Assembly (NCBI GenBank): GCA_963676565.1
Contig: OY781089.1
Coordinates: 2,080,001-2,144,000, forward strand
DNA length: 64,000 bases
Direction of reading: 5' to 3'
Source: Halarcobacter sp.
GTDB lineage: Bacteria; Campylobacterota; Campylobacteria; Campylobacterales; Arcobacteraceae
In this document: piece by piece, positions 4,326 to 49,148 of the stretch
How positions within the stretch are numbered: the stretch's first letter is position 1
Layout of the letters: each line of letters starts with the position of its first letter
Notes under the pieces: generated by a model
Databases searched by the model: none
What the model was told of the DNA's origin: nothing
What the model saw: only the letters and a program-made list of their open reading frames with translations
Program-made: the position numbers and the translations under genes

Positions 4326-4640
4326 ATGCGAATTACAATTACAGAAGCTGAGTTTGAGGCTATTCAAAAAATATTAGTTCAAAATGATACAATGTTATAT
4401 AATAGGTTTAATGAGGAGTTTAAAAAATCAATTTTATCATGTACTCCAAAAAAAATAAAAGCAACAAAAAAAGCTAATAATGTAAAAAGAAAGAGAAGTA
4501 GAACAGCAATAACTAATGCTGTTAATATGTTAAGATTTGAAAATAAAAAAATTACTATATATAATGTAGCTAAAACAGCTGAAATTAGTTATAACACGGC
4601 AAAACAATATAAAGACTTTATAATGGCTCAATCAGCTTAA
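4326..4640 (+). CDS. Small basic protein with C-terminal helix-turn-helix-like segment
   Basis: Strong SD; Lys/Arg-rich linker then ITIYNVAKTAEISYNTAKQY, an HTH-like pattern. Confidence 0.65.
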   Translation: MRITITEAEFEAIQKILVQNDTMLYNRFNEEFKKSILSCTPKKIKATKKANNVKRKRSRTAITNAVNMLRFENKKITIYNVAKTAEISYNTAKQYKDFIMAQSA

Positions 4641-4963: not shown

Positions 4964-5812
4964 TTACTCTACAATTTGATGTAATTTAGAACATCTACTT
5001 AGAAAAGTATCCATCCCACACATATCATTGTACATATCATCAAAAGAATGAAAGTGTGCATCATATATGTATACAAAGATTTCATCACCTTTTTCTAAAA
5101 AGTGTTTTTTACCAAATTCTGCGTAAGCTGTTGCCCCAGCGGCAATTAATAAGCCCTTTGCATCTTTTGCATTTTTTGTAAATTGTGTTAACTCTTCTAA
5201 TGGTCCCATATCCTCTTGGGTATTTAGTTTTTCAATCATCCAGTCTTTTAATTGTGTGAAAAAATAGCTATATGAATTAACCGCAGAAGTGGTACCATAA
5301 TCATGAACAACACCATTTCTTTTTATAAAAGAAGCAATATGATATCTATTTAATATCCCTTCTTCTGTGAAATTATCAATCTTAATTGCATCTCTTGAGA
5401 TACCCTTTGTATTCTTTCCCCAGTTTTTTTTAGTACTTAATTTATTTCCATCTTGTATTCTTATTGAAAAGTCATTAAAAGCAGAAAAGTATTTTGGAAT
5501 AATATCAACAACTTTTTCATTTTCATAAATAAAGTCACAAATTAATGCAACTTCAGCTTCAACTTGTAAATTGTCCTCTTCTCTTCCATGGGTTTTAATA
5601 GTTTCATCACATATAGGAAATGTACCTAAAAATGAATCATGCCCTGGAATATAAAAGGGGAACATACCTTTTGGAGCATCTTTTTCTTTTGTTTGTATAA
5701 CTGCAAATTCATCAGCTTCACCAGCTTCTCCTAAATGATTTGCAAAGTTTCCTGCAACACCAAACCCTAAATAATCTTTTAATTCTTCTAAATCTATATA
5801 TTTTTTTTCCAT
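4964..5812 (-). CDS. Conserved hypothetical protein (DUF5718-like)
   Basis: N-terminal GFGVAGNFANHLGEAGE and KLSTKKNWG motifs, recalled as DUF5718-type; SD AAGG upstream. Confidence 0.6.
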   Translation of the reverse strand: MEKKYIDLEELKDYLGFGVAGNFANHLGEAGEADEFAVIQTKEKDAPKGMFPFYIPGHDSFLGTFPICDETIKTHGREEDNLQVEAEVALICDFIYENEKVVDIIPKYFSAFNDFSIRIQDGNKLSTKKNWGKNTKGISRDAIKIDNFTEEGILNRYHIASFIKRNGVVHDYGTTSAVNSYSYFFTQLKDWMIEKLNTQEDMGPLEELTQFTKNAKDAKGLLIAAGATAYAEFGKKHFLEKGDEIFVYIYDAHFHSFDDMYNDMCGMDTFLSRCSKLHQIVE

Positions 5813-5911
5813 TTTATTACCTTTAATATTTTTCTTTAACAGTAAGTTTTTTTTGTATGTGATTATTTAAAATTGTGAGGTTTGTGGTTAGTTTACGTTA
5901 GATTTTTGTTT

Positions 5912-6025
5912 TTATCTTTGACGTGTACAGCGACTCTCACAATTTTTTACTTTTGCTTTCTTGACTTCGACGAGCCCAAGGGCAATAGCAAGTTTTGTTG
6001 TGACAGTGACAATTAAGTTTTTCAT
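5912..6025 (-). CDS. Unannotated 37-aa peptide MKNLIVTVTTKLAIALGLVEVKKAKVKNCESRCTRQR
   Basis: Read manually: AAAGGA SD, ATG at 6025, TAA at 5914-5912. Locally GC-richer than flanking intergenic DNA. Confidence 0.6.
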   Translation of the reverse strand: MKNLIVTVTTKLAIALGLVEVKKAKVKNCESRCTRQR

Positions 6026-6044
6026 TATCAATCCTTTTAATAAA

Positions 6045-6075
6045 TATAGATAAGAAGTTTAACTTCTTATCTATA
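6045..6075 (-). terminator. Hairpin downstream of the CitE/Mch operon
   Basis: TATAGATAAGAAGTT-T-AACTTCTTATCTATA perfect 15-bp inverted repeat about 20 nt after the stop at 6097. Confidence 0.7.
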
Positions 6076-6096
6076 ATTTAATCTTAATCTTTAAAA

Positions 6097-7080
6097 TTAA
6101 GAGAAAAATCTAGTGTTTACTTCATCCATTAATTTAGCACCAGAAAAATGTGCTCTTTGAACTAATTCCCAGAAATATCTATATGTAGCTCTATCGTGTA
6201 ATTCACCATCATATTGAATTGGTCCCCACTCAGCATCTTGTGCATTTAATAAAATATTTTGTGCAGCTTCTAATTCTGTAAAGTCTGGTTTCATAGCATC
6301 TACAATTGCTTGTACTTGTGTTGGGTAAATTGACCACATTCTCATAAATCCAAACTCATTTCTTGCTCTTTCCGCATCTTTATAAGTTTGATATGGGTTT
6401 TTAAGATCAAGTGTTACATTGTGACAAGGAATAACATGGTTTTGAATAGCCGCTTGCGCAACTTTTGCTTTAGCTGCACCAATTAGTCTATGATCAAATT
6501 GACCAGGACTTCTCATATTAGATGCAGGAATCGCCCCTTGATAACCAGAAACAAAGTCCATTAATCCAAAGTCTAAAACTTGAAGCCATGGTAAAGTTGC
6601 AATTTTTTCAACATCTTGTAATGCTCCGTGAGTTTCAATTAAGATATGAATTGGAATCTCTCTTGTAATACCAGATTTTTTAGCTACCTCTTGAATATAC
6701 TCAATTTGAGTTTTAACATCTTCATAAGAAGTTGATTTTGGTAATGTAATATATGCTAATTTTTCTCCAGCACCTGGAACTAGAATATCAACATCTTGTC
6801 TCCAATCTGGATGTGAGAAATCGTGAATTCTTGTACCAGCCATTGCATATGGGTTAGCATCAGAGTTAACAACTCTAACAATCATTTCAGCGTGTTCAAC
6901 TTCTTTTCCAGTTTCTGCTCCATCTTCGCAGTCACAAGTAATATCAAATACAGGTCCAAGTTTCTTTTGCATTTCGAAACCTTTTAAAATTAGTTTCTCG
7001 CTTCCTGCAAAGTGCTCACAAGTTGGGATAATTGGTAAAGATTTACCAGATTCAAATAGTGCTTCGTTTGGATGTGTCAT
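6097..7080 (-). CDS. CitE/HpcH-HpaI superfamily CoA-ester lyase
   Basis: DCEDGA, TRIHD, LIETHG, FGLMDF and GELHDRA motifs of the CitE/malyl-CoA lyase TIM barrel. Confidence 0.85.
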   Translation of the reverse strand: MTHPNEALFESGKSLPIIPTCEHFAGSEKLILKGFEMQKKLGPVFDITCDCEDGAETGKEVEHAEMIVRVVNSDANPYAMAGTRIHDFSHPDWRQDVDILVPGAGEKLAYITLPKSTSYEDVKTQIEYIQEVAKKSGITREIPIHILIETHGALQDVEKIATLPWLQVLDFGLMDFVSGYQGAIPASNMRSPGQFDHRLIGAAKAKVAQAAIQNHVIPCHNVTLDLKNPYQTYKDAERARNEFGFMRMWSIYPTQVQAIVDAMKPDFTELEAAQNILLNAQDAEWGPIQYDGELHDRATYRYFWELVQRAHFSGAKLMDEVNTRFFS

Positions 7081-7107
7081 AATAATTTCCTCTCTTTAAA
7101 TTTATTT

Positions 7108-8181
7108 TTATTTCTTTTTTGTTTTTTTCTTTGGAATGATTACAGTGTAATCTAAATCAAGTACTACATTTTTTAAGTACTTACCATCTTCACCTTTTGG
7201 ATTTTCAATTTCTGAACTTTTTTGATTTTTAACAGCAACTGTTCTTAATCTTAATAATCCTAAGTCATCTCTTTTGTGATCAATTACATCTAAAACCTCA
7301 GTATATGCATATATTGTATCACCAGCATATGTTGGGTTACAGTGAGCTCCACTATTAATTGCATAAACCCATTGAGCGTTTTGTAAACCATTAAATGAAA
7401 TTGCCCTTGCAATTGATATTACAATACCACCATACATCAATCTCTCTCCCATAGGAGTAGACTTCATCATATGGTCATTGAAGTGTACCTTTGCATTGTT
7501 TTGGTATAACTTTGTTGCTAAAGTATGGTCACTATCATCAATTGTAATGCCCTCAGGGTGATTAAGTCTTTCTCCAACTTCATAATCTTCGAAGAAATAC
7601 TCCCCACCGGTTGCATTAGTATCAACCATGTCAATCTCTGGGATATTGATATCTTCAACTATTGGTGTTGATTCAGCAAATGTTGGAACATCATTGATAC
7701 CAAGCATAGTTTCTTTGTCTTTTTTGTGAACCATAACCCATCTTTTGAAGTTTAACACCTCTTTATCTTGCTCGTTGTATCCAATTGAATGAACATAAAC
7801 AACTCCAGATTTTCCATTTGAATTCTCTTTTAATCCAATTACGGTTGATTCCATTCTAACTGTATCCCCAATAAATACTGGGTTAGGAAAAGAGATTTCA
7901 GCATAACCTAAATTTGCAATTGCATTTAAAGATATATCTTGAACCGATTTCCCAAATGTTAAATGGAACATTAAAATATCATCAATTGGTCTTTCGTTGT
8001 ATCCAATCTCTTGTGCTAATTCATCAGATGAATGTAAAGCAAATCTAGAACCAGTGAAGGCGATGTATAAAGATACTTCACCTTCTGTTATAGTTCTTGG
8101 AAGAGGGTGGATAATTTTTTGTCCAATTGAAAAATCTTCAAAAAAGTTACCAACATTTATTTTTGTACTAATTTTAGACAT
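7108..8181 (-). CDS. mch: Mesaconyl-CoA hydratase (beta-methylmalyl-CoA dehydratase)-like double hot-dog MaoC protein
   Basis: GNFFEDF, FGKSVQDISLNAIANLGYAE, VIGLKENSNGKSGVVYV, RWVMVHKKD and YQNNAKVHFN closely match Mch-type enzymes. Confidence 0.8.
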   Translation of the reverse strand: MSKISTKINVGNFFEDFSIGQKIIHPLPRTITEGEVSLYIAFTGSRFALHSSDELAQEIGYNERPIDDILMFHLTFGKSVQDISLNAIANLGYAEISFPNPVFIGDTVRMESTVIGLKENSNGKSGVVYVHSIGYNEQDKEVLNFKRWVMVHKKDKETMLGINDVPTFAESTPIVEDINIPEIDMVDTNATGGEYFFEDYEVGERLNHPEGITIDDSDHTLATKLYQNNAKVHFNDHMMKSTPMGERLMYGGIVISIARAISFNGLQNAQWVYAINSGAHCNPTYAGDTIYAYTEVLDVIDHKRDDLGLLRLRTVAVKNQKSSEIENPKGEDGKYLKNVVLDLDYTVIIPKKKTKKK

Positions 8182-8190
8182 TTACCTTCC

Positions 8191-10710
8191 TTATTTTCCA
8201 AATAGGTTTTGACCTAAAGATTTATATGTATCATAAAGTGTAATCATCTTTTTAGCCCATTTAATTCTACACTTGTCAACAAGTTTATCTTTAAATTGAA
8301 TAACCTCTTTACCATCTTTTTCAGCTTCTTCGTATTTAGAAATCATCTCTTCATACTCTTGAACCTCTTTTTGAGTTGGAGTAAAGATATCATTGATGTA
8401 CTCAACTTGAACTGGGTGGATTAATGCTTTACCATCAAATCCTAAATTAAATGCATCTTTTGTTGAATCTTCACAAGCAAATTCATCATGAACATCATTA
8501 TGTGGTCCATCAATAACTGTTTTACCATATGCTTTTGCTGATAATGCAATACGTGCTAGGTAATTAAACATAGCTTTAGAACCTTTTTTAATATCAATTT
8601 GAAGTCTATTTGCTAAGCTATTTGAACCAACAACAATAACCTCAGTTTTCTTTGAAGCTTCACAAATATCAGGTGAATTTAAAATTGCCAATGGAGTTTC
8701 AATCATCACCATCATTGTTAAGTCAGGATTAACTTCATTAATTAATCTTTCTGCTTCTAAAACTTGCTCAACTGTTTCAATTTGTGAAAATAAAATTGCA
8801 TCAATTTCAATCTCTCGTGCAAGTTCTAAATCTTTTGTTAATTCTTCAGTTCCAATGTTATTAACTCTTAAAACTCTTTCTGATTCACCAAATTTAGAAC
8901 CCTCTTCAGCATAAACTTCTCTAATTGTATTTCTTGCAATCTCTTTTTGTTCATGTAAAATAGCTTCAATATCAAATACAACAGAATCTGCTAAAACAGT
9001 TTTTGCTTTTTTTACATACTTTTTATTATAAGCTGGAACAAACATCATTGATCTTCTAGCTTTATATTCAACAATCTCTTCACCTGTTTCTTGCGAATGG
9101 TATTGTTCATGTAATTGTTTAACAAGTTGTTTTCTTAAAACTTTTCCATTTTTAGTTCTTGGATAATCTTTCATCCCAAAAATAACTTTTGGAGCTTTAT
9201 ATTTAGCAAGATTTGTTTGAGAAAATGCAAGAATCTCTTGCTCTTGCTCTTCTGTTAAATCTTCATGTCCAATAACTGCAATAGCAACTAAAGTTTTATC
9301 TTTTTCTAAATCAAGACCAAAGGCAACACAATCAGCTACTAAATCGTGAGTTTTTACAACTCTTTCAATCTCATGTGGAGATACTCTAAATCCAAACGTG
9401 TTAATGATGTCATCTTTTCTACCAATGAACCAAATATATCCATCTTTATCTCTTTTTGCATAATCACCTGTAAAGAAATATCCATCATGTCTAGCTTTAG
9501 CTGTTTCTTCTTCTAATTGCCAGTATTCTAAGAATAAACCTGGATCATCTTCACCTATACAGATCATCCCTTCTTCTTCTAATCCAACTTCTTCTAAAGT
9601 ATCTGGATCAAGTAGTTTTACAATGTGTCCTGGCTGAACAAATCCTGCACTTCCAGGTCTAATTGGATTGTTTTTAGAGTGTGAAATATAATATGAACAC
9701 TCAGACATACCAATTGCTTCAAAGATATCTTGATTAAATCTTTCTCTCCATAAACCTAACATCTCATCAGATAAATGCTCACCAGCAGACATACAGTATC
9801 TTAATGATGGACAATCTTTAATTGAGAAATCAGTTTTTTGAATGATTTGTCTATAAATTGTTGGAACCCCAATGAAAATTGTACATTGGTGTTTTTTAAT
9901 TAAATCAATCCATGTTGAAGCATCATTTGCTCCTTCATATGCAATTACTGTATGACCATTAAATAATGGATCCATAAGTGCAGAACCTAATACATAAGTC
10001 CAGTTAAATTTACCAGAGTGCATGATTCTATCATTCTCTTTAAAATCAAACCAATATTCAGTTGCAGGAGTTCTACCAACTAATGATCTATGAGAGTGTA
10101 AAACTCCCTTTGGATAACCAGTTGTTCCTGATGTATATACTAAATATGCAGGCTCACCAGATTTTGATGGATAATGATTAGGTGTTTTATCTGTATTTGC
10201 TAAAATCTCATTTAAAGCATATACTTTCATACCCTTTGGCACTTTATAATCTGCAACACTATCTACACCAGCAACAATAATTGTTTTTAGATTATCAACA
10301 TTTTCTAAATATGGAACTAGATTTTCAAACATAGTTGCACTCATAACAATTGCACTAGCTTGTGAATCTTCAGCAAGATATTTAACCTCTGAACCACTTA
10401 AAAGTGTAGACGTTGGTACTGCAATAATTCCAGCTTTAATCGCACCAAAAAATGAGATTGGATATGCTAAAGAGTTTTTTAAACAAACTAAAACTCTATC
10501 TCTAGCTCCAATTCCAATTGATGTTAGGAAGTTACAAACCTGGTCTGATTTTTCTGATAACTCTTTATATGTAATCTCATCAGTACCAAGTTTATCATCT
10601 TCAATGATCATTGCAGTACTATTTTCTTTTGCTGTTCCTAAATGACTTGATGTACAAGCTACACCAATATTTAAAAATTCAGGTACTTCAATTTTTACAT
10701 TTGAACTCAT
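8191..10710 (-). CDS. Acyl-CoA synthetase (AMP-forming) fused to a C-terminal CitE/Mcl2-like domain
   Basis: ANL motifs YTSGTTGYPKG, GMSE, TGD, GRKDD and PRTKNGK in the first ~535 aa; then RRSMMFVP, LRVN, MIETP and GFDGKALIHPVQ (CitE fold). Confidence 0.85.
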   Translation of the reverse strand: MSSNVKIEVPEFLNIGVACTSSHLGTAKENSTAMIIEDDKLGTDEITYKELSEKSDQVCNFLTSIGIGARDRVLVCLKNSLAYPISFFGAIKAGIIAVPTSTLLSGSEVKYLAEDSQASAIVMSATMFENLVPYLENVDNLKTIIVAGVDSVADYKVPKGMKVYALNEILANTDKTPNHYPSKSGEPAYLVYTSGTTGYPKGVLHSHRSLVGRTPATEYWFDFKENDRIMHSGKFNWTYVLGSALMDPLFNGHTVIAYEGANDASTWIDLIKKHQCTIFIGVPTIYRQIIQKTDFSIKDCPSLRYCMSAGEHLSDEMLGLWRERFNQDIFEAIGMSECSYYISHSKNNPIRPGSAGFVQPGHIVKLLDPDTLEEVGLEEEGMICIGEDDPGLFLEYWQLEEETAKARHDGYFFTGDYAKRDKDGYIWFIGRKDDIINTFGFRVSPHEIERVVKTHDLVADCVAFGLDLEKDKTLVAIAVIGHEDLTEEQEQEILAFSQTNLAKYKAPKVIFGMKDYPRTKNGKVLRKQLVKQLHEQYHSQETGEEIVEYKARRSMMFVPAYNKKYVKKAKTVLADSVVFDIEAILHEQKEIARNTIREVYAEEGSKFGESERVLRVNNIGTEELTKDLELAREIEIDAILFSQIETVEQVLEAERLINEVNPDLTMMVMIETPLAILNSPDICEASKKTEVIVVGSNSLANRLQIDIKKGSKAMFNYLARIALSAKAYGKTVIDGPHNDVHDEFACEDSTKDAFNLGFDGKALIHPVQVEYINDIFTPTQKEVQEYEEMISKYEEAEKDGKEVIQFKDKLVDKCRIKWAKKMITLYDTYKSLGQNLFGK

Positions 10711-10726
10711 AATTTCAACTCCCTAA

Positions 10727-11860
10727 TTAGATTTGACCATAAGGCCAGTTTTCTTTAAATGTATGTAATGGCATTTTATTTAATACTGTTACAGCAAACT
10801 CATAATCTTCTTTACTTAAACTATTAAGTGCATTTGCTCTTAAGATATTTTGTAAAGATTTACCAAACATTGGTGGATCTAACATTTCACCTTCATATCT
10901 AATAGCTCCACTTAATAAAGCATCTGTTTCAATAGCTGCTTTTAAAATATCTACATCTTTTGCAATTTCTTTTGGAGATGGAGTAAATGCTACTTTACAA
11001 ACATTGATATGATTAGGAGTAATAACTTGTTTACCTGTTAATCCCATTGCATATTCTCTTTGTGCATGTGCATAAACATGTCTTGATGCATCATCACCAT
11101 GCAAATCTAACCATCTTCTAATATCTTTTTTCTCAACGCAAGAATCTGGTAATGAATTTGGAGTAAGTAAAACTTCAACCCCACCAATTACACCTTTACC
11201 TTGTATTCTAGCTTCCATAGTAAGCATATTAAAAAATGTTTCTAATTCATCAATCCAACCCTCAGGAGTGATTTTGTATGACATAGCTTTTGAAAAGTCA
11301 TGGATACCAAATACTAAGTGTTGTACAGTTGAAAATTGCATTAACTTATCAGCAATCTTAAGTGATTTTGGGTGTTCAATAATTGGTTGAATTTGTAAAT
11401 TCGATCCAATTGAAATTAACCAAGATGATAAATCTCTAATCTCAGCTGCTCCATATACTTCACCAGCTTTTGCTAAAACAATTGCATCAATATATTTGTG
11501 AATTTGTTTTAACATTTTTAAATCTTCTTCGTATTCAGCTGTTCTAAATGGATTAATTCTTACAGCAATTTGAAAATCTCTTTCAGGAAACTTTGGAAGT
11601 TCTTGAATTAGTAATTCCCTTGACATCTCTTTTTGTCTACATCCATCTTCTAAGTCAAATAAAACTGTATGAGCTTTTGTTTTGTAAGCATGTTTTTGTA
11701 ATCTATATTTAGCTTGCTCCATAGTTTCATAAGTTCCATCAAGTGGATTAAACTTAATTGGTGGATAATAAATTTGAATACCTGGCCATTTTCCCCCTAG
11801 CACAGGTGATAAATCGTCATTTGCAGTTAATTTTGATAAATCTACGAAAGATGAATTCAT
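10727..11860 (-). CDS. CitE superfamily CoA-ester lyase (malyl/methylmalyl/citramalyl-CoA lyase-like)
   Basis: FDLEDG, VRINP, IIEHP, FGIHDF, GLTGKQVITP and GEMLDPP motifs. Confidence 0.8.
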   Translation of the reverse strand: MNSSFVDLSKLTANDDLSPVLGGKWPGIQIYYPPIKFNPLDGTYETMEQAKYRLQKHAYKTKAHTVLFDLEDGCRQKEMSRELLIQELPKFPERDFQIAVRINPFRTAEYEEDLKMLKQIHKYIDAIVLAKAGEVYGAAEIRDLSSWLISIGSNLQIQPIIEHPKSLKIADKLMQFSTVQHLVFGIHDFSKAMSYKITPEGWIDELETFFNMLTMEARIQGKGVIGGVEVLLTPNSLPDSCVEKKDIRRWLDLHGDDASRHVYAHAQREYAMGLTGKQVITPNHINVCKVAFTPSPKEIAKDVDILKAAIETDALLSGAIRYEGEMLDPPMFGKSLQNILRANALNSLSKEDYEFAVTVLNKMPLHTFKENWPYGQI

Positions 11861-12194
11861 AATTTTTCCCTCTTTTCCTAATAATTTCTGTTAAAAATCT
11901 TATTCAGATTGATTTCTGATAGACGAATTAATCCATATATAAAATAAACTGAATCATACTTTTAAAAATTAATTTAAATTTTAAGAAAATTTTTATTATT
12001 GTTGTAGGCACCATAAAATAGGGCTTTTTTAAAGTGAGAATATGATAGTTTCACAATGTGAGAAAATTTTTTTCAAAACTCTTATAATGTAAAAAATTTT
12101 TTTCAAAATTTGTACAATTTTGTAGCTTATTTAGGAACAAAATATTTTTTATAGTTCAAAAAGGAGATAAATTCTTTATACATTTATTGAAAAA

Positions 12195-12962
12195 ATGATA
12201 AAATCAAAAAAAATTAATAGAAGAGATAAATTGCAAAATAGTCCAAACAAGTCTTTTAAAAAAGGGCTTCAAGTCTTAAAAGAGATTATGAAAGCCAATA
12301 AACCAGTTACAGCTAATACTTTATGTCAAAAACTTGAAATAGATAAAAGTACTATGTCTAGATTAGTTACAACTTTGATGAGTGAAGATTTTATTGAATA
12401 TAAAGGTGATTCAAAAGAGATTATTTTAAGTGACATATTAAGAAAAATTGTATTTAAAAATGATAGAGAAAAAATTATAGAAAAAACTGCTGCTCTTTTA
12501 GATCAGATTTTTCATCTAACCAATGAAGCGGCATATATCTACATATTGGATAATAACTTAGCTTTAAATCTAAATCAAATAGATATGTCAACTCGGGTTT
12601 TAAAAACTAGAGATTCAATTGGATTACATTCACCTTTACATGCTAATGCTTTTGGAAAAGTTCTTATTGCTTTTACCCCTGAAGTAAAAATAGATTCTTT
12701 AGAATTAACAAAATATACATCTTATACAATAACATGTAAAACAAAATTACAAAAAGAGTTAGATCTAATCAAAGAAAGAGGTTATTCAATTGGTACTGAA
12801 GAGTATGAATTTGGATTGAAATCTGTTGCTGTTCCTTATTTTGATAAGCAAAATAAATTCATAGGTGCAGTTGGAATATCTGGATTATCAGTTAGACTTG
12901 AAGATGAAAAACTTCATAAATTTGGGCAAGAGATTTTTAAATTAGTTAATAGTTACAACTAA
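12195..12962 (+). CDS. IclR family transcriptional regulator (start may be the TTG at 12231)
   Basis: N-terminal HTH (LEIDKSTMSRLVTTL); PLHANAFGKVLIA and GYSIGTEEYEFGLKSVAVP effector-domain motifs; divergent from the CitE operon. Confidence 0.9.
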   Translation: MIKSKKINRRDKLQNSPNKSFKKGLQVLKEIMKANKPVTANTLCQKLEIDKSTMSRLVTTLMSEDFIEYKGDSKEIILSDILRKIVFKNDREKIIEKTAALLDQIFHLTNEAAYIYILDNNLALNLNQIDMSTRVLKTRDSIGLHSPLHANAFGKVLIAFTPEVKIDSLELTKYTSYTITCKTKLQKELDLIKERGYSIGTEEYEFGLKSVAVPYFDKQNKFIGAVGISGLSVRLEDEKLHKFGQEIFKLVNSYN

Positions 12963-12971: not shown

Positions 12972-13868
12972 TTATAGACTTCCTTTGTTGTTTGATAAAT
13001 ATTCATGTGCTAAATAAGAACTTCTAGCATATGGTGTTGAGTGAACAAAAGAGAACCCTAACTCTTTTGCTAATTTTTTATATCTATCGAATTGATCTGG
13101 ATGAACAAACTCTTTTACCTTTGCATAGTCTCCACTTGGTGCTAAATATTGACCAATACTTAAAAAATCACATCCTACAGCTCTTAAGTCTTTAAATACT
13201 TGAACCATCTCTTCTTCAGTTTCGCCAAGACCAACCATAAGTGCAGATTTTGTTTTTATTTTATTACCACCAAGTTCTTTTAATCTTTGTAGAACATCTA
13301 ATGATCTTTGATATGTAGCACCTTTTCTAATTTTATACATTGATGGTACTGTCTCAATATTATGTCCAATAATTACAGCACCTGAATCAACAACTTTTTT
13401 TAAAGAATCATCATCTGCTTGAAAATCAGGAATAAGAATTTCAACTTGAGTATCTTCTGTATTTTCTAAAATACTTTTTGTAACTTCATAAAAATGATTT
13501 GCACCACCATCTTTTAAATCGTCTCTTGCAGGACTAGTTATAACAACAAATTTTAATCCAAGCTTTTGAACAGATGTTGTAATTTCTTGAACTTCTTTTT
13601 CATTAACATAACCGTTTGGATTCCCAGTTTTAACATTACAATATTGACATCTTCTTGTACATAAGTCACCTAAAATCATAAATGTAGCATTTTTCTTAGC
13701 AAAACATTCACTAATATTAGGACATTTGGCTTCTTGACAAATCGTATGTAATCCATGTTCTCCTAATAAAGCTTCCATCTCTTTTTGTGCAGTTGGAACT
13801 AGTTTCTTTCTTAACCATTCAGGTTTTTTAAAATCAACTTTTTTAAATTGATTTACTGCTTGTGTCAT
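12972..13868 (-). CDS. lipA: Lipoyl synthase
   Basis: CQEAKCPNISEC (CX4CX5C) and CTRRCQYC radical-SAM motifs; C-terminal RSSY. Confidence 0.97.
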   Translation of the reverse strand: MTQAVNQFKKVDFKKPEWLRKKLVPTAQKEMEALLGEHGLHTICQEAKCPNISECFAKKNATFMILGDLCTRRCQYCNVKTGNPNGYVNEKEVQEITTSVQKLGLKFVVITSPARDDLKDGGANHFYEVTKSILENTEDTQVEILIPDFQADDDSLKKVVDSGAVIIGHNIETVPSMYKIRKGATYQRSLDVLQRLKELGGNKIKTKSALMVGLGETEEEMVQVFKDLRAVGCDFLSIGQYLAPSGDYAKVKEFVHPDQFDRYKKLAKELGFSFVHSTPYARSSYLAHEYLSNNKGSL

Positions 13869-14592
13869 ATTTTTCCTTTAACAAGTTATTTTTTAAATCT
13901 ATTTCATCATTTGTCAGTTTTTCTTCTTTTAAAGTAACATTAAAAGTAGTTCTAAATGCATCAATAATTTGATTGATTGCATCTTGTGAATTTAATTTTA
14001 TTCCAATATCTTCAAGACTAATACCTAATTTCTCATCAAAACCGTTACTTTTTGTAGCAACTAATGGAATTGAACCATGTTGAAAAATTGCTTTTTTTGT
14101 TCGTCTTTGTGCATTTCCACCAATTTTTTTTCCATTTACAAGGATATCATATGCTTCAAATCCAACTTGACAAAACTCACTTTTAGATAATTGAATCTTT
14201 TCATTGTCTTTTGCGTAGCAAACATCTAGACCTAAATTTTTGTAAAAATTCAGTAGAAATTGACATATATATTCATAAGATTTTTTTATACTTAGTGTTG
14301 ATAAAATATGTGTTGGTATTATTAATGAATATGAAATATCATGTCCATGAAATAAAATTCCACCACCTGTTATTCTTTTAGCAACTTTTTCTTTTTGATT
14401 TTCTAGAAAATCGTAAGATTCGATATTTTGGGAAATTCCAATGGTTGAACTATTTTCATCCCAAGTATATAATCTTATTATTGGCAAATCATCATTCTCA
14501 AAATTTTTTAACAATGATTCATCTGTTGCCATATTCTCTTTTGAAGAACCTTGATTTGATACAATTAATCTAAATGTTTTTTTATTAAACAA
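13843..14592 (-). CDS. Lipoate/octanoate-protein ligase (LplA/LipM family)
   Basis: NMATDE, RITGGG, KKIGGNAQRR and QHGSI motifs; overlaps the lipA start. Confidence 0.88.
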   Translation of the reverse strand: MFNKKTFRLIVSNQGSSKENMATDESLLKNFENDDLPIIRLYTWDENSSTIGISQNIESYDFLENQKEKVAKRITGGGILFHGHDISYSLIIPTHILSTLSIKKSYEYICQFLLNFYKNLGLDVCYAKDNEKIQLSKSEFCQVGFEAYDILVNGKKIGGNAQRRTKKAIFQHGSIPLVATKSNGFDEKLGISLEDIGIKLNSQDAINQIIDAFRTTFNVTLKEEKLTNDEIDLKNNLLKEKYDTSSKSI

Positions 14593-14812
14593 AATGTATA
14601 ATCTACCTTTAATTAAAATTCAAAAAAAACTAAAACTTTTTTTAGAAAATAGTAAATTTTCATCACCTTTTTTTCATTATAATTTCATTTATATATAAGA
14701 TATCTTAAAAAATAAATTAATATTTTAGATTCAGTTTACATTAAAATAAGATAAGTATCATATGTTCAGAATTCGGATTTATGGTGCGAATTGATACATA
14801 ATTTTTACATAA

Positions 14813-14826
14813 TGAACATATGTTCA
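14813..14826. promoter_or_regulatory. 14-bp palindrome upstream of aceE, candidate operator
   Basis: TGAACATATGTTCA in the divergent lipoyl ligase/aceE intergenic region. Confidence 0.4.
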
Positions 14827-14883
14827 ATCTTTAAAGTAAAAATTATCTTTAAAATTAAGAAAAAATTAAGTAAGGAAGTATGA

Positions 14884-17556: not shown

Positions 17557-17566
17557 GGAGTAAAAA

Positions 17567-19300: not shown

Positions 19301-19309
19301 GGAATAAAC

Positions 19310-22506: not shown

Positions 22507-22508
22507 AT

Positions 22509-25346: not shown

Positions 25347-25411
25347 AGTTCACTTTTGATTTAATTTTTAATTATTGTAACAAAAAATAGTCTCTTAACT
25401 GTCTCATTGAA

Positions 25412-26149
25412 CTATAGAATTTTTTTATATTTTAACTTATATCCATGTCCATAAATTGATTCAAATAATTCATAATCAAGTTTTTGTTTTAATCTTGACA
25501 TTAGGTTTCTTACTCTTTTAGAGCTTGTTGAGTATTCATCAAAAATATAGTTTTCAATCTCATCATAAGTTTTTAATGACCCCTTAGTTGATATAAATAG
25601 GGTAAATAGCTTAATTTCTGATTTTGTTAATTTTATCTCTTCTTCATCTTTAAATAATAAAGAATCTTCTGTATTCCATAAAAAGTCATTTTCAAGATTG
25701 ATAATATGATTGTTTATTGTTTTTAGTTTGTTCTTTTCAATTATTTTAGATAAAGAGTTAGATATCTGATCTATTGAATATGGTTTTAATATATACCCAT
25801 CAATTCCAGCATTAATTGTTTGTAGAAAATACTCAGTATTACTATGGGCAGAAAAAATTAAAATAGGTATATCTTTATCAAGTTCTCTAATTTGATTAAT
25901 CATAGTTATACCATCTTTTACAGGCATCTCAATATCAGTAATAATTAAATCAAAAGAAGAAGATTCAAATTTGTTTTTTGATTTAAATAAATTAAGGCCT
26001 TCATTACCATTTGTAGCAATTACAATATTATCAAAAAATACATCAAGCATTTTTAATGTTTGATTTCTAACATCATTGTTATCTTCTATATAAAGGGTAT
26101 TTAGACTTTTTGTGATATCAATTATTTTCTTTAAATTATCATGGTTCAT
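25412..26149 (-). CDS. OmpR-family response regulator
   Basis: REC (ITDIEMP, LKP) plus winged-helix C-terminus (LTKSE...RLKQKL...YGHGYKL). Confidence 0.92.
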   Translation of the reverse strand: MNHDNLKKIIDITKSLNTLYIEDNNDVRNQTLKMLDVFFDNIVIATNGNEGLNLFKSKNKFESSSFDLIITDIEMPVKDGITMINQIRELDKDIPILIFSAHSNTEYFLQTINAGIDGYILKPYSIDQISNSLSKIIEKNKLKTINNHIINLENDFLWNTEDSLLFKDEEEIKLTKSEIKLFTLFISTKGSLKTYDEIENYIFDEYSTSSKRVRNLMSRLKQKLDYELFESIYGHGYKLKYKKIL

Positions 26150-26229
26150 ATTAATCCTCTTTATTTATATAATTATACTAAAAAAAAGTTAAATTATCTG
26201 AAAGATTATTATATTTTTGAAAAGAGGAG

Positions 26230-30115: not shown

Positions 30116-30116
30116 T

Positions 30117-31091: not shown

Positions 31092-31099
31092 TTTCTTCC

Positions 31100-44584: not shown

Positions 44585-46162
44585 CTATTTTAAAGAGTCT
44601 AATAATTCTGCTTTTAATTCCTCTTTATTGATTTTATTCTTATCACTTGGAATTAAAGGAAGTGATTTTTTATAAATTATTCTATTAGGAATCATATAAG
44701 AAGCTAGATGATTTTTAAGTTCAAAAGTTATCTCTTTTGGAGGGATTTCACTTCTAGAACTATAAACCATAACTATCTCTTCTTCAATTTCATCATTTGG
44801 AATTGAGAATATTGCACATTGCTCAATTTGTGGAAAATTCTTTTCAACAACTGATTCAACCTCAAAAGGACTTACTCTAAATCCTCTAGTTTTAATCATG
44901 TCATCTCTTCTACTTACAAAATAGAAATATCCCTCTTCATCTTTATAAACATAATCTCCTGTTGCAACAACAATTTCATCTCTTAATTGTCCATCTAAAT
45001 TGATTACATTTTTTAAAATTTGAATCGATTTAAATCTTTGAGCCGTTTCAATTGGAGCATTCCAAAAACCTTTGTAGATATATCCACCTCTGTGGATTAA
45101 TTCACCCACTTCTCTTGGTTTACACTCATATCCCTCTTCATTTATAACATATAATTCTACGTCTGGAATAGCTTTTCCAATCGATTCAGGTCTAATATTT
45201 ATTTGTGATGGTTCTAAATATGTAGATCTAAATGCCTCTGTTAAACCATGCATTGAATAAAAGTTAACTTGAGGAAAATATCTTTGGATATTTTTTACCA
45301 TTTTAGGTGTTACATTTCCACCTGAAGAGGTAATAGTTTTTACATTAGCTAATAATTCAGGACTTGGTATTCTATGTTCATCTTCATCAAACATTGCATT
45401 TATAGTCACAGGCATCATAGCTACAACTGTTACATTATCATTTATTAAATGGTTGAAAAAATCTCCTGGTAAAATAAATCTATGTAATGCTAATGTTGCT
45501 CTTTTGTAAAGTGAACAAAAAATTTGATTTAAACCATAATCTAGATTAAAAATTAAAATTCCAGAAAGGACATCATCCTCTTGTAAATCTAAATATGAAG
45601 AAACAACCCTTGCACTATCAATTAAGTTTCTATGAGATATTACAATACCTTTAGGTGTTCCTGTTAATCCAAAAGAATAAGTTATTACAGCATTATCATG
45701 ACCATTTACTGTAGTTTCATATGGTTTTTTATAGTATTTAAAAATCTCTTCAAAAGAAGGGATATCTTTATGGGCAGTTTCGTATGAGATAATATGTCCA
45801 TCAAAATTAATTGATTCAATAGATTCAAGTTTTAATTTATCAGTAATAATACATCTAATATCACAATCATTGATTATGTATTCCACCTGTTCACTTTTAA
45901 GTAACTTTGTAAGTGGTACAAGCACATAATTGGTAGATAATATAGCTAGTATTGCTATAACTTGGTCCATACCTTTATTTGAGTAGATACCAATTCTACT
46001 CCCTGCTGGTAAATCTAACTCTTTTAAATAAAAAGCAATTTGATTAACTTTTTTTAATAACTCTTCATAAGTAATAGATTTCTCATTGTGTTTTATTGCT
46101 ATTTTATCACTATGTGTTAACGCAGCACTTTCAATTAATGATCTTATACAATTTATTGACAT
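44585..46162 (-). CDS. AMP-dependent ligase (ANL family) with atypical A3 motif
   Basis: YSFGLTGTPKG, MHGLTEAFRSTYL, TGD and SRRDDMIKTRGFRVSP motifs. Confidence 0.85.
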   Translation of the reverse strand: MSINCIRSLIESAALTHSDKIAIKHNEKSITYEELLKKVNQIAFYLKELDLPAGSRIGIYSNKGMDQVIAILAILSTNYVLVPLTKLLKSEQVEYIINDCDIRCIITDKLKLESIESINFDGHIISYETAHKDIPSFEEIFKYYKKPYETTVNGHDNAVITYSFGLTGTPKGIVISHRNLIDSARVVSSYLDLQEDDVLSGILIFNLDYGLNQIFCSLYKRATLALHRFILPGDFFNHLINDNVTVVAMMPVTINAMFDEDEHRIPSPELLANVKTITSSGGNVTPKMVKNIQRYFPQVNFYSMHGLTEAFRSTYLEPSQINIRPESIGKAIPDVELYVINEEGYECKPREVGELIHRGGYIYKGFWNAPIETAQRFKSIQILKNVINLDGQLRDEIVVATGDYVYKDEEGYFYFVSRRDDMIKTRGFRVSPFEVESVVEKNFPQIEQCAIFSIPNDEIEEEIVMVYSSRSEIPPKEITFELKNHLASYMIPNRIIYKKSLPLIPSDKNKINKEELKAELLDSLK

Positions 46163-46174: not shown

Positions 46175-47362
46175 TTATTTATTCATACCCAAAGTCCAAA
46201 TATCATAATTGTTATCCATTACAATAGTTGGGTTGTGGTTAGAGTTTAGAATCTTCTTATAGAAAAATGATACTATATCTTCTATTTCCTCTTGCTTGAG
46301 AACTTTTGTAATTCCACCTGTTAGTACAATAGAATTAAGTACATTTAGTTTTAAATTAACATAGGCTTTTCTAAAAGTTGAAACTTTACATAAAACTAAG
46401 AATATTGCTAATTGCATCAGAATTCTAGTGCTTTTTTCACTTTTCTCATCAAAAATATTTTCAGTAACTTTTAAATGTGCTAGTAATTCATAAACAAACT
46501 CATTGTTTTTTGCTGCAAAGATTAATGATTCCCTTGATTTATATACACCAAGTTTTTTAAATACTAATCTATCATATTCATTTTGAGTTACCATATTTTC
46601 ATCAACTAAGTCTTTTGAATAGTGGATATCAGTAGTTGCTCCACCAATATCTATCAAGATATAAGGATTAGCAACTTTAAATTTACCATCTATCATTGGT
46701 AAAGTTTTATTAACAATATATGGTGTTGAGTAGATTTGATTTGATGTAATATCATATAGACTTTTAATATCTTCTTTTCCCATAATATCAGCTTGATAAA
46801 GGTTTGTTAAATACTCTTTTAAATGTTCCTCTTCAACATGAAGTCTATTTGTAATAATATTTGGAAGAACAACAAGGTTTTTTATTTTTTCTTTTAAAGA
46901 AGGAGCTTCTTTTGAGCTTCCAACATATACAATATTTGAATATTTTATTTTCTCAAGGTATTCAAATAGTTTTTCATCAAAAATATTAGAAACAGAGTCG
47001 ATCCCCCCAACAATAATTACTACATCGATTAAATCACTTGGAATTGAAGTTTTTTCAATATCTTTATATAAAACAGTATCAATAATATTAATACCTGAAT
47101 TAAAGGCGATATTAGTAGCATATTTTAAAGAAAAAGAGTTTGTAACACCGATGATTAATGTACTTAAACCACCATTTGCCGATGAACAAATATATACATC
47201 ATCTTTTTTATAATTATGGATTGTATCACCACATTTATATGTTAAATCATCATAAATATCTTTATTAAAGTCTCTAAAATGTTGCTCAACTCCATGTACT
47301 GTACATACTTTAAAATATGTACTTCCCACATCAATTAATAATTTATCATTTATTTCACTCAT
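46175..47362 (-). CDS. glmL: Glutamate mutase reactivase GlmL/MutL-like
   Basis: IDVGSTYFK, CSSANGGL and IDIGGATTDIH ASKHA motifs; ATG at 47362 follows an AAGGA SD. Confidence 0.85.
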   Translation of the reverse strand: MSEINDKLLIDVGSTYFKVCTVHGVEQHFRDFNKDIYDDLTYKCGDTIHNYKKDDVYICSSANGGLSTLIIGVTNSFSLKYATNIAFNSGINIIDTVLYKDIEKTSIPSDLIDVVIIVGGIDSVSNIFDEKLFEYLEKIKYSNIVYVGSSKEAPSLKEKIKNLVVLPNIITNRLHVEEEHLKEYLTNLYQADIMGKEDIKSLYDITSNQIYSTPYIVNKTLPMIDGKFKVANPYILIDIGGATTDIHYSKDLVDENMVTQNEYDRLVFKKLGVYKSRESLIFAAKNNEFVYELLAHLKVTENIFDEKSEKSTRILMQLAIFLVLCKVSTFRKAYVNLKLNVLNSIVLTGGITKVLKQEEIEDIVSFFYKKILNSNHNPTIVMDNNYDIWTLGMNK

Positions 47363-47370
47363 ATTCATCC

Positions 47371-48738
47371 TTACCACTGCATAATACCGATATCATGGAT
47401 AATATCGTTTACAATTGATGTAGTATCTTTTTTCAAATCACATTGAGATTTTTCATATTCAAAACATCTGTCTGGAATTGGAACTTTACCTCTATCTATT
47501 ATTCTAATGTTTTTATTTTTATCTCTAATTGTAATCATGTTATTGTGATTAATAATATGTGGAGAGAATGGTACATCAATTGTTCCATTTTTGATTGAAT
47601 TAAATACTTTTCTCCATAAAGTGTCTGCAGGATCATTAAATACTGCTTCCATAATGGCCATAACTTCTGCTGTTAGGTTTTCCTCTTCCTCTTGGTCTAC
47701 AATATTTGGTAAACCATTTAAGATTCTAAGTAAGTATTGAGTATTTGCAACAGTTTCTGCATTTGCTTCTTTTGTTGGGATTCCTGAAGCTTCTTGTTTT
47801 GTTTTTGTAATAATTTTATCAGCTCCAACCATTGAAGCAATAACCGTACTCATAGAGATTAGTTGAGTTGCATAGTTTTGATCTTCCGGAAATGCACCCA
47901 TCCATTGGTGATAAACAAGGTGAATATCCGCATCTTCACACCCAATCTCATTAGCATAATATTTTGCCATTTTCTTTAAAACTGCAGCTGTTACAATATC
48001 TTGATTCATTGAACCTTGTTGTGAAAAAGAAACAGAAAATGATTTAACTCCCTCTTCAAGAGAAAGTAACATCTCTAAAAGTTGTATAACAATAGTAATA
48101 CAAGGTGGGACTAAAGTAGCAGTTAGTGGTCCAAATGATTCTCTATTTATTGGTTCATTTAGTTTTGAATATTGTGCACATACTCTTTCTACATATTTCC
48201 AGTATAAAAATGCTTTGTCTAATGGGAAATTTTTAGAGTAGGGTAAAAGGTAAGTTATTGGACCACCTTCAATCTCAAAAATACCAGAAGCTATTGCCGT
48301 TTCAATTAAAAGTCTTGCATCCGGAGTACCATGTCTTAATGAAATAGGCTTATTAAAGTGAGTCATCATTTTTCTAGTAGTTCTATATCCATGGTTAATT
48401 AAAGGATAACCATTTAACATATCAACTTCACTCTCTTCACTAAGTCTAAGCATCTTTTTAGAGGTTGCATAATCATTTAATCTTGTATTAGAATCGATTG
48501 TACAAGGAAGAACATCAACATCAGCATCATTAAAAAACTCATATAAAGCAAACATTTTATTGTATGTAGGAAAACCACCTCTTGGTTGTACTAACATTTT
48601 ATTTTTTGTTTTGAAATTATAAGAGATAAACAAATCTTTTGAAGCATTTTTAACAAAGTCTTCAACTTCTGCAAAATCAAAATTATCTACATATTCATTG
48701 TTTAAAATAATATTTCTTTCTTCTTGAAGTAAACTCAT
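47371..48738 (-). CDS. glmE: Glutamate (methylaspartate) mutase E subunit
   Basis: QPRGG, TIDSNTRLNDY, LNGYP, RHGTPDARLL, EGGPITY, NRESFGPLTATL and HQWMG motifs. Confidence 0.92.
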   Translation of the reverse strand: MSLLQEERNIILNNEYVDNFDFAEVEDFVKNASKDLFISYNFKTKNKMLVQPRGGFPTYNKMFALYEFFNDADVDVLPCTIDSNTRLNDYATSKKMLRLSEESEVDMLNGYPLINHGYRTTRKMMTHFNKPISLRHGTPDARLLIETAIASGIFEIEGGPITYLLPYSKNFPLDKAFLYWKYVERVCAQYSKLNEPINRESFGPLTATLVPPCITIVIQLLEMLLSLEEGVKSFSVSFSQQGSMNQDIVTAAVLKKMAKYYANEIGCEDADIHLVYHQWMGAFPEDQNYATQLISMSTVIASMVGADKIITKTKQEASGIPTKEANAETVANTQYLLRILNGLPNIVDQEEEENLTAEVMAIMEAVFNDPADTLWRKVFNSIKNGTIDVPFSPHIINHNNMITIRDKNKNIRIIDRGKVPIPDRCFEYEKSQCDLKKDTTSIVNDIIHDIGIMQW

Positions 48739-49148
48739 TATTTTCTTCCTTCCATGAATTTTTCAAGTTCATCTAAACCAGTATTTAAATCTACTTGGTG
48801 AAATACTAAATCAAAACCATAATTTTTAAATTTTGGAACAATATCATCAGCATACCCTGTACCAACTACTAAGTTACCACCAATCATGAATACAACATTA
48901 TCCAATAAGTTACCATATTGAGCTTTTAAGATTCTAAGCTCTCTTGCCCAACCCTCTGCTTCACCATTAAGTGATGAAATTAATAAAATATCAGCATTTG
49001 TTTCAATCACTGCATCAATAAACTCTTCTAAGTAAGTATTTACACCTAAGTTGAATACTTCGAATCCTCTTGCTTGCAGTGAAAGTTCTATAAGTCTATT
49101 TGCTACTACGTGGATATCATTTCCCACTACGCCAGTTACTACTTTCAT
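48738..49148 (-). CDS. Glutamate mutase S subunit (B12-binding; MamA/MutS-type)
   Basis: DIHVVA (DxHxx base-off/His-on), SSLNG and IGGNL motifs; stop overlaps the glmE start. Confidence 0.9.
   Translation of the reverse strand: MKVVTGVVGNDIHVVANRLIELSLQARGFEVFNLGVNTYLEEFIDAVIETNADILLISSLNGEAEGWARELRILKAQYGNLLDNVVFMIGGNLVVGTGYADDIVPKFKNYGFDLVFHQVDLNTGLDELEKFMEGRK

Follow-up and report, generated by a model that had tools for sequence, protein, structure and literature searches.

A conserved Arcobacteraceae operon with three CitE-like domains and an Mch/MeaC-family hydratase as a candidate route between C5 dicarboxylates, glyoxylate and propionyl-CoA

The closest described counterpart of the operon treated here is the cluster ab1917-ab1921 of Arcobacter butzleri RM4018. 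In the part of their paper that deals with this cluster, Miller et al. (2007, PLoS One; PMC2147049) proposed in silico a mesaconyl-coenzyme A (CoA) synthetase, Mch, and beta-methylmalyl-CoA plus malyl-CoA lyases. A second counterpart is the Methylotenera cluster mmol_0748-0766, for which PMC3728764 reports high transcription in situ and no known role. The operon itself is located in a Halarcobacter sp. genome (Arcobacteraceae, Campylobacterota), within 64,000 nucleotides of contig OY781089.1 (GCA_963676565.1, positions 2,080,001 to 2,144,000 of the forward strand). This whole stretch is called the window, and its numbering is used below. The operon encodes two stand-alone CitE-like proteins (CitE-A and CitE-B), a fusion of an acyl-CoA ligase with a third CitE-like domain (CitE-C), and a hydratase.

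The first-pass annotation of the window had stated that no such module was known to be characterised in Campylobacterota. This is literally true in that no enzymology was found, but the relevant part of PMC2147049 had predicted the module for A. butzleri in 2007. No other paper tying Arcobacter to citramalate, mesaconate, itaconate or methylmalyl-CoA was found in the literature search, supplements aside. The interpretation is reasonable but already published as a prediction, and the operon is a moderately interesting target for enzymology, not a new discovery. The added value of the present analysis is a sharper, testable assignment for each protein.

The locus is a genuine, conserved operon, predicted to handle C5 acids as CoA esters around mesaconyl-CoA and glyoxylate. 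The route that may be assigned to it, with a probability of about 0.5, leads from a free C5 acid, mesaconate, through mesaconyl-C1-CoA and beta-methylmalyl-CoA to propionyl-CoA plus glyoxylate, followed by formation of malyl-CoA and its hydrolysis to malate by CitE-C. The substrates, the direction of flux and the allocation of the CitE proteins to individual steps were deduced from gene structure, protein families, residue patterns, synteny and co-occurrence.

The operon and its proteins

The features of the operon are listed from its first gene onward, followed by the regulator gene and the spacer; bit scores are those of Pfam, with a cut-off of 25 bits for HpcH_HpaI in CitE-A and CitE-B.

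10727..11860, minus strand: CitE-A, a divergent CitE-like acyl-CoA lyase with complete catalytic residues, 377 amino acids (HpcH_HpaI, 32 bits)
8191..10710, minus strand: open reading frame (ORF) of the ligase::CitE-C fusion, 839 amino acids
9091..10710, minus strand: AMP-forming acyl-CoA ligase domain of the fusion, residues 1 to about 540 (AMP-binding, 248 bits; AMP-binding_C, 39 bits)
8191..9090, minus strand: CitE-C, the CitE-like domain of the fusion, with an altered metal site, candidate thioesterase, residues about 541 to 839 (HpcH_HpaI, 107 bits, residues 553-766)
7108..8181, minus strand: Mch/MeaC-family double hot-dog hydratase, predicted for mesaconyl-C1-CoA / beta-methylmalyl-CoA, 357 amino acids (MC_hydratase and MaoC matches)
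6097..7080, minus strand: CitE-B, a canonical CitE-like lyase of the 3QQW/3R4I family, candidate beta-methylmalyl-CoA / malyl-CoA lyase, 327 amino acids (HpcH_HpaI, 33 bits)
12195..12962, plus strand: gene of an IclR-family regulator, divergent from the operon, 255 amino acids (IclR_C, 113 bits; HTH_IclR, 32 bits)
11861..12194, no strand: AT-rich divergent spacer and promoter region, 334 bp

The earlier description of four co-oriented, closely spaced genes divergent from an IclR gene was confirmed by the Pfam matches and by the ORF list of the window, in which 16, 9 and 27 bp separate the four genes. None of the five proteins, those of the operon and IclR, reached an NCBIfam equivalog cut-off; the regulator, a member of the IclR family by its two Pfam domains, had its top NCBIfam score with BhcR (114 bits, cut-off 350). 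The genome is a single contig of 3.34 Mb, 99.97% complete, and contains no HpcH_HpaI domain besides the three of the operon. A 16-nt word, AAAATTTTTTTCAAAA, is present twice in the 334-bp spacer; it was considered as an IclR operator and dropped, since it was not conserved in 21 related intergenic regions. Transcription of the operon is weakly supported by wastewater metatranscriptome contigs (X1, X2, X5) of at least 90% likeness, on which the four genes were heavily covered and the IclR region hardly; these contigs derive from relatives, their depth tracks sequence conservation, and DNA carry-over is possible. The raw reads of RNA run X23 yielded 0 reads.

The order of the operon genes is not a chance arrangement, because it was kept in all loci fetched from the family. 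AceE-LplA-LipA-IclR-CitE-A-fusion-Mch-CitE-B-DUF5718 was the order in 14/14 same-genus loci, and CitE-A-fusion-Mch-CitE-B, followed at some point by DUF5718, was retained in 12/12 loci from other genera. IclR was beside CitE-A in all 14 of the former and 7 of the latter, and a class I fumarase was located between CitE-B and DUF5718 in 6 of the 12 other-genus loci, as in A. butzleri. In the window, lipA, an lplA-like gene and the aceE-aceF-lpd pyruvate dehydrogenase genes (12972-21085) abut the IclR gene; this neighbourhood was present in 14/14 same-genus loci and seen in none of the 12 others. Of 24 genomes of the same genus, 22 encode the fusion at full length and a further one in broken form; a search of 16 genomes that represent other families of the order did not find it. 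The best 120 database matches to it were all at least 81% identical and carried the names Arcobacter, Halarcobacter, Malaciobacter, Aliarcobacter, Poseidonibacter and, once, Sulfurovum. CitE-B was present in 75 of 121 sampled family genomes, representing 15 of 22 genera. In one related genome (G005:C1:299481-301998), a TAA interrupts the fusion at about residue 500, near the ligase/CitE boundary, and the pieces overlap; natural splitting, pseudogene formation or faulty assembly may account for this, the genome being only 81% complete.

The hydratase had been called Mch-like in the first-pass annotation, and the comparison with solved structures bears this out. Its residues 5-352 align to residues 2-351 of the Chloroflexus Mch 4E3E (371 bits, 6e-110), and residues 7-351 to residues 2-348 of the Methylorubrum extorquens MeaC 8HGN (345 bits, 4e-102), so that the protein is, as expected for a full-length double hot-dog enzyme of about 350 residues, covered end to end. 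The alignment indicates about half identity to MeaC. The motif YQNNAKVHF aligns with FQNTAKVHF of 8HGN and retains the Asn and His that correspond to the catalytic Asn226 and His231 of MeMeaC (PMC10164722). Membership of the hydratase in the bacterial Mch/MeaC family, at full length, is supported by these alignments. They also bear on a possible itaconate degradation, in which the ligase would replace Ict and itaconate would be converted through itaconyl-CoA and (S)-citramalyl-CoA to acetyl-CoA and pyruvate. The N-terminal half of the hydratase scored 110 bits with the NCBIfam model RipB/Ich, and the CitE domains scored 38, 54 and 113 bits with RipC/Ccl. These values are to be compared with equivalog cut-offs of 340 and 375 bits, respectively, and with the 371 bits of the full-length match to Chloroflexus Mch. 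Itaconate degradation would, moreover, provide no role for three CitE domains and leave the link to the methylcitrate cycle described below unexplained, so it is considered very unlikely.

The CitE proteins were evaluated by seven residues of MCL_R (Asp42, Glu44, Asp45, Arg76, Glu141, Asp168 and the lid residue Asp299), which Zarzycki and Kerfeld found conserved across the whole CitE-like malyl-CoA lyase superfamily (PMC3832036). Orthologues were drawn from Arcobacteraceae and Proteobacteria. The equivalents in CitE-A (D69, E71, D72, R101, E162, D188, D328) were all invariant in 104/104 orthologues, and all seven were likewise invariant in 53/53 orthologues of CitE-B; both proteins carry the complete residue set of a canonical lyase. 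All CitE proteins scored far under the curated NCBIfam cut-offs for models of characterised lyases. The best PDB matches of CitE-B were 3QQW (3e-138) and 3R4I (1e-99), structures of a family that is biochemically uncharacterised, followed by malyl-CoA lyases (Mcl 4L9Y at 3e-13). CitE-B adjoins Mch in Arcobacteraceae, in Beta- and Gammaproteobacteria and on a Sphingobium plasmid, where the CitE-B/mch pair is beside a family III CoA-transferase gene. Other plasmid contexts of CitE-B homologues are mixed: the gene is isolated in Azoarcus and accompanied by a CoA-transferase and a second CitE in Variovorax. On plasmid p2 of Cupriavidus pinatubonensis (locus 5291-9987), a homologue of the 3QQW family, 60% identical to CitE-B, lies directly downstream of a pyruvate carboxylase gene, with two CoA-transferases and another CoA-ester lyase nearby; this context is uncharacterised, too. 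CitE-A had no close homologue among the plasmids searched.

The fusion protein contains AMP-binding and AMP-binding_C in its ligase part, which places this part in the ANL superfamily. The strings YTSGTTGYPKG, GRKDD and PRTKNGK, which correspond to ANL core motifs, can be read intact in the translation. Homologue searches with the whole fusion were dominated by adenylation domains of nonribosomal peptide synthetases; the useful matches were P0121, P0122, P0172 and a few ligases, and the stand-alone ligase P0122 was 58% identical to the ligase domain.

The CitE-C domain lacks the residue set of a canonical lyase. Ala583 occupies the position of Asp45 (Ala in 120 and Gly in 2 of 122 fused orthologues), and Ser698 that of the Mg-binding Asp168 (Lys in 86, Asn in 25, Ser in 8, Thr in 2, Gln in 1, Asp in 0 of the 122). 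Stand-alone CitE-C orthologues of Beta- and Gammaproteobacteria have a Glu as lid residue in 57/57 cases and DLG[D/N]P instead of DLED. A lid Asp-to-Glu exchange has been described only for the clade of the Rhodobacter sphaeroides malyl-CoA thioesterase (Mcl2-like; PMC3832036). Judged by these residues, CitE-C is a fast-evolving, non-canonical paralogue in both lineages; for this reason, and because of the lid Glu in the stand-alone orthologues, the domain looks more like a thioesterase and is treated here as a candidate for one. In a quick tree, each of the three CitE groups formed one side of a branch (support 89, 100 and 97), and the fused CitE-C grouped with the stand-alone betaproteobacterial CitE-C (support 97). 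This tree contained no characterised reference enzymes, Mcl2 among them, and indicates orthology groups only.

Direction of flux and metabolic context

In the proposed route, the ligase domain would attach CoA in an ATP-dependent manner to a free branched C5 dicarboxylate, most likely mesaconate, which might be taken up or might derive from (S)-citramalate through the class I fumarase, encoded within the cluster in other genera. The Mch-family hydratase would convert mesaconyl-C1-CoA to beta-methylmalyl-CoA, and CitE-B would cleave this product into propionyl-CoA and glyoxylate. Propionyl-CoA would be consumed through the AcnD/PrpF methylcitrate cycle of the genome. CitE-A or CitE-B, as canonical lyases, would join glyoxylate and acetyl-CoA to malyl-CoA, which the altered CitE-C domain would hydrolyse to malate, a task that malate synthase G may fulfil where it is present. 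The four-gene transcript would be controlled by IclR.

Evaluation of this route needs to consider the metabolic context. The genes prpB, prpC, acnD and prpF of the genome all scored above their NCBIfam cut-offs, and PrpD was not found in the genome. An isocitrate lyase was absent from the genome: the sole match to the family was the methylisocitrate lyase PrpB, with 58 bits over part of the Pfam isocitrate lyase model and 515 bits against the PrpB equivalog. The 121 family genomes contained no true isocitrate lyase either, only PrpB-like ORFs of about 297 amino acids, in 83 genomes. PrpB was present in 74 of the 75 family genomes with CitE-B, the exception being an 85%-complete assembly, and nine family genomes contained PrpB without CitE-B, a pattern in which the operon depends on the methylcitrate cycle but the cycle does not depend on the operon. 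Malate synthase G, the sole dedicated consumer of glyoxylate, occurred only where the operon is, in 11 of the 121 genomes, all 11 with CitE-B. These co-occurrence counts are descriptive, as related genomes are not independent. The dependence on PrpB and the restriction of malate synthase G to genomes with the operon favour a flux towards propionyl-CoA and glyoxylate. Malate synthase G as a general partner of the operon was rejected, given 11/121 genomes versus 75/121 for CitE-B. The only malate synthase G gene of the Halarcobacter genome is situated outside the window (G000:C1:939697-940419, an ORF of 731 amino acids) and is not accompanied by an isocitrate lyase.

A glutamate mutase-like cluster in the same window (44585-49148, minus strand) offers another conceivable source of the C5 acid. 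It comprises a GlmS-like B12-binding protein (48738..49148), a GlmE-like protein (47371..48738), a GlmL-like protein (46175..47377) and an acyl-CoA/adenylate-forming ligase of the exosortase-A-associated type (44585..46162). In a bacterial methylaspartate cycle or pathway, glutamate would be converted through methylaspartate to mesaconate and feed the operon; GlmS (153 bits) was above its cut-off, and GlmE reached 382 bits versus a cut-off of 390. A methylaspartate ammonia-lyase domain (PF07476), the product of the mal gene for which the first-pass annotation had recommended a check, had 0 matches in the complete genome. The GlmE family, present in 81 of the 121 family genomes, was not co-distributed with the operon, either: GlmE and the operon occurred in 1/11 versus 11/11 genomes of genus g27, 11/11 versus 1/11 of g28, and 5/5 versus 0/5 of g31. 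Glutamate as the C5 source was rejected for these two reasons, and a methylaspartate route into the operon has hardly any likelihood left. The cluster may supply 3-methylaspartate for a non-catabolic use.

The search outside of the family, seeded with the stand-alone ligase P0122, gave 406 relatives, and the 80 loci retained belong to Methylophilaceae, Gallionellaceae, Sulfuricellaceae and Methylophagaceae of the Beta- and Gammaproteobacteria. CitE-A was directly upstream of the ligase in 80/80 loci, with a class I fumarase downstream of the ligase in 46-48. A divergent operon, opening with a stand-alone CitE-C followed by Mch, was present in 57/80 loci, with CitE-B after Mch in 30/80 and prpB plus prpC after CitE-B in 5-6/80, which is wherever the flank extends that far; many of the loci end at contig or flank edges, so the lower counts are minima. 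The ligase operon additionally contains GntR, malic enzyme, sdhCDAB and acnB in Methylophilaceae, and malic enzyme plus phosphoenolpyruvate synthase in a Methylophagaceae genome.

In these 80 loci, ligase and CitE-C are encoded separately and on opposite strands. The Arcobacter fusion looks like a merger of two ancestral sub-operons, and the fusion of the two domains looks like a by-product of operon merging. The idea that the fusion is a sign of consecutive reactions catalysed by ligase and CitE-C is weakened by this arrangement.

The constant pairing of CitE-A with the ligase suits the sequence from acid to acyl-CoA to cleavage, with citramalate or malate as the acid, and hence a reverse pathway. 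This would resemble the second cycle of the 3-hydroxypropionate bi-cycle, be near the scheme of Miller et al., and convert propionyl-CoA plus glyoxylate to acetyl-CoA plus pyruvate. CitE-B would condense the two substrates, Mch would dehydrate the product to mesaconyl-C1-CoA, and CitE-C would hydrolyse it to mesaconate; the class I fumarase would form (S)-citramalate, the ligase would re-activate it, and CitE-A would cleave (S)-citramalyl-CoA to acetyl-CoA and pyruvate. Hydrolysis and ATP-driven re-ligation would take the place of an intramolecular CoA transferase. Gene order would be reaction order in both sub-operons, CitE-A/ligase/(FumI) as found in 80/80 loci and CitE-C/Mch/CitE-B as found in 57 and 30 of 80. 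Each enzyme would have exactly one role, the scheme needing two canonical lyases and one thioesterase-like CitE. The adjoining pyruvate dehydrogenase genes in 14/14 same-genus loci, and the proposal of an interconversion of glyoxylate plus propionyl-CoA and pyruvate plus acetyl-CoA in the relevant part of PMC2147049, are in agreement with it as well. However, the reverse direction has no evident source of glyoxylate, an isocitrate lyase not being found in the 121 family genomes, and it would compete with the methylcitrate cycle, yet PrpB is present in 74/75 operon genomes and the operon is joined to prpBC elsewhere. The 11/11 genomes with malate synthase G that carry the operon fit production of glyoxylate better than its consumption. 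On balance, the reverse direction appears unlikely.

A sub-variant of the flux towards propionyl-CoA and glyoxylate would generate the C5 acid internally and serve as a bypass of isocitrate lyase, by closing a bi-cycle of citramalate-mesaconate and methylcitrate reactions. CitE-A and a thioesterase activity would form (S)-citramalate from acetyl-CoA and pyruvate; fumarase, ligase, Mch and CitE-B would turn it via mesaconate, mesaconyl-CoA and beta-methylmalyl-CoA into propionyl-CoA and glyoxylate; and the methylcitrate cycle would convert propionyl-CoA plus oxaloacetate to succinate plus pyruvate, returning the pyruvate. The net reaction would be acetyl-CoA plus oxaloacetate to glyoxylate plus succinate. 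The evidence for the route from free mesaconate applies here in the same way, supplemented by the fact that the module shares operons with prpBC and, among Methylophilaceae, also with sdhCDAB, malic enzyme, class I fumarase and acnB. The occurrence of the module in restricted methylotrophs and lithoautotroph lineages makes a central role likelier than catabolism of external acids, isocitrate lyase was found neither in the genome nor in the 121 family genomes, and the Methylotenera cluster mmol_0748-0766 is highly transcribed in situ according to the passage on it in PMC3728764. On the other hand, the part of PMC2147049 concerned reports no growth of A. butzleri RM4018 on acetate, formation and hydrolysis of citramalyl-CoA by CitE proteins are pure inference, and each turn would cost one thioester plus the conversion of ATP to AMP. 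Nothing separates the bi-cycle from an uptake of external mesaconate or citramalate, and it is put forward as a doubtful proposal.

The route from free mesaconate to propionyl-CoA and glyoxylate, as preferred here, has to be weighed against several observations. The conserved neighbour of the ligase in 80/80 proteobacterial loci is CitE-A and not Mch, and the ligase matched no substrate-specific NCBIfam model above its cut-off (for instance, PRK06187, 306 versus 476; MbcS, 285 versus 850). The fused CitE-C retains a lid Asp812 instead of the thioesterase-type Glu (Asp in 120 and Glu in 2 of the fused orthologues), so it lacks the lid residue that marks the malyl-CoA thioesterase clade. The occurrence of the module in methylotroph and iron-oxidiser lineages argues against a simple catabolism of external C5 acids, and a dicarboxylate transporter was not conserved in the cluster among the 14 same-genus and 12 other-genus loci. 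Of the two class I fumarases of the genome, one is encoded next to fumC at a distance of about 13 kb from the operon. Class I fumarases of such type are documented mesaconases (PMC4682846), but the position beside fumC here, and together with sdhCDAB and malic enzyme in Methylophilaceae, indicates that the enzyme may be a plain fumarase. No assay of any enzyme of the operon was found in the literature search, and A. butzleri RM4018 was reported, with data not shown there, to be without growth on acetate or propionate in the part of PMC2147049 that covers it.

What the first-pass annotation had proposed for the pathway stands in parts. A pathway of C5 acids and glyoxylate agrees with the Mch family of the hydratase, with the residues of CitE-B and its adjacency to Mch, and with the pattern of methylcitrate cycle, isocitrate lyase and malate synthase G; the substrate of the ligase and the direction of flux are hypothetical. 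The AMP-forming domains for an ATP-dependent activation are present, but the CitE-A/ligase pair fits activation of citramalate or malate as well as that of mesaconate. A conversion of glyoxylate to malate fits the odd, thioesterase-like CitE-C, the fused form of which keeps a lid Asp.

If the chemistry holds, a large group of bacteria that lack isocitrate lyase would have an ATP-driven link of C5 dicarboxylates to glyoxylate and propionyl-CoA that is tied into the methylcitrate cycle; in the sampled genomes, this group includes most Arcobacter-family genera, Methylophilaceae and Gallionellaceae. The route could account for the "methylcitric acid cycle" cluster that lake methylotrophs express strongly and for the way in which Arcobacter handles carbon derived from acetyl-CoA. 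If true, the bi-cycle, together with malate synthase activity, malic enzyme and pyruvate dehydrogenase, would allow assimilation or full oxidation of acetyl-CoA without isocitrate lyase in Arcobacteraceae, Methylophilaceae and Gallionellaceae, and would be a working form of the long-abandoned "citramalate cycle".

DUF5718 and other neighbouring genes

Two further features follow CitE-B.

6045..6075, minus strand: terminator-like hairpin with a 14-bp stem, 22 nt past the stop codon of CitE-B
4964..5812, minus strand: DUF5718 gene, predicted fumarylacetoacetate hydrolase (FAH) fold, conserved accessory downstream of CitE-B (Pfam DUF5718, 315 bits)

The hairpin comes from a consensus scan only, which found 4 such sites versus 2.9 expected. 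Its position and the gap of 284 bp suggest that DUF5718 has its own transcript. The DUF5718 gene was downstream of CitE-B in 26/26 loci of the family, and none of the 80 proteobacterial loci contained it.

The AlphaFold (AF2) model of the DUF5718 protein, with a pLDDT of only 66 and a pTM of 0.73, gave 48 Foldseek matches at E <= 1e-3, with every row listed belonging to the FAH superfamily. With VIA, the top result was a Z score of 13.4 at a root mean square deviation of 3.5 over 192 aligned residues; 107 chains had a Z score of at least 8, all rows listed above Z 4.4 were FAH-superfamily structures, and the next unrelated chain had Z 4.4. A FAH fold is predicted from this comparison. Pfam FAA_hydrolase did not match the protein, phmmer of the protein versus PDB yielded nothing meaningful, and a link to FAH at the level of sequence was discarded after hhalign with the genome's own FAH protein had returned a probability of 0.2, so that the fold comparison alone supports it. 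The invariant E85-x-E87 and D114-x-S-x-R of DUF5718 resemble EAE and DLTLR of the genome's FAH protein by eye only. The possibilities for its chemistry would include a decarboxylase, hydrolase or hydratase acting on a 2-oxo acid.

Beyond DUF5718, a methyl-accepting chemotaxis protein of the dCache type (526-2781, minus strand) is encoded, which is beside DUF5718 in many related loci, and a major facilitator superfamily transporter (2849-4096, minus strand), which was seen in only one related locus. These proteins may sense or import a substrate of the pathway. An ORF of 104 amino acids without a family match (4326-4640, plus strand) is found beside DUF5718 with 68-76% identity in 7/14 same-genus loci. 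Signalling genes are unusually dense at 21532-33459 and 36761-51548, with five GGDEF proteins, several PAS/HAMP histidine kinases and response regulators.

Comparison with known systems

The cluster ab1917-ab1921 of A. butzleri agrees in gene content and order, with CitE, ligase::CitE fusion, enoyl-CoA hydratase and CitE, as given in the part of PMC2147049 on this cluster, and the fusion of the window is 82% identical to A. butzleri entries. The class I fumarase AB1921 follows in the A. butzleri cluster, whereas it is about 13 kb away beside fumC here, and the operon of the window is flanked by the IclR gene and the pyruvate dehydrogenase genes. DUF5718 and the altered site of the fused CitE are not mentioned in the section of the 2007 account that treats the cluster.

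Orthologues of all five catalytic parts are present in the "methylcitric acid cycle" cluster of Methylophilaceae (Methylotenera mmol_0748-0766, as far as it is described in PMC3728764) and its relatives in Gallionellaceae and Methylophagaceae. The identities to the proteobacterial orthologues are 59-64% for CitE-A, 56-60% for the ligase, 31-36% for CitE-C, 49-59% for Mch and 65-72% for CitE-B. These clusters differ from the Arcobacteraceae operon in being organised as two divergent operons with separate ligase and CitE-C genes, in the lid Glu of CitE-C, in a GntR instead of an IclR regulator, in prpB/prpC after CitE-B, and in DUF5718, found in 0/80 loci.

The same chemistry as proposed here operates in the ethylmalonyl-CoA pathway with Mcl1, Mcl2 and Mch (Rhodobacter, Methylorubrum) and in the lower part of the haloarchaeal methylaspartate cycle, namely, mesaconyl-C1-CoA to beta-methylmalyl-CoA to propionyl-CoA plus glyoxylate, then formation and hydrolysis of malyl-CoA. 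Mesaconyl-CoA is obtained there from methylsuccinyl-CoA or by a CoA-transferase, whereas it would arise here from the free acid and an AMP-forming ligase.

The use of mesaconate by Burkholderia xenovorans, with mesaconase, citramalate CoA-transferase and citramalyl-CoA lyase (PMC4682846), is similar in combining a class I fumarase with CitE-like lyases and with the activation of a C5 acid. That route proceeds without Mch and yields acetyl-CoA and pyruvate, in contrast to the operon described here, in which an Mch-family hydratase and the link to the methylcitrate cycle are central.

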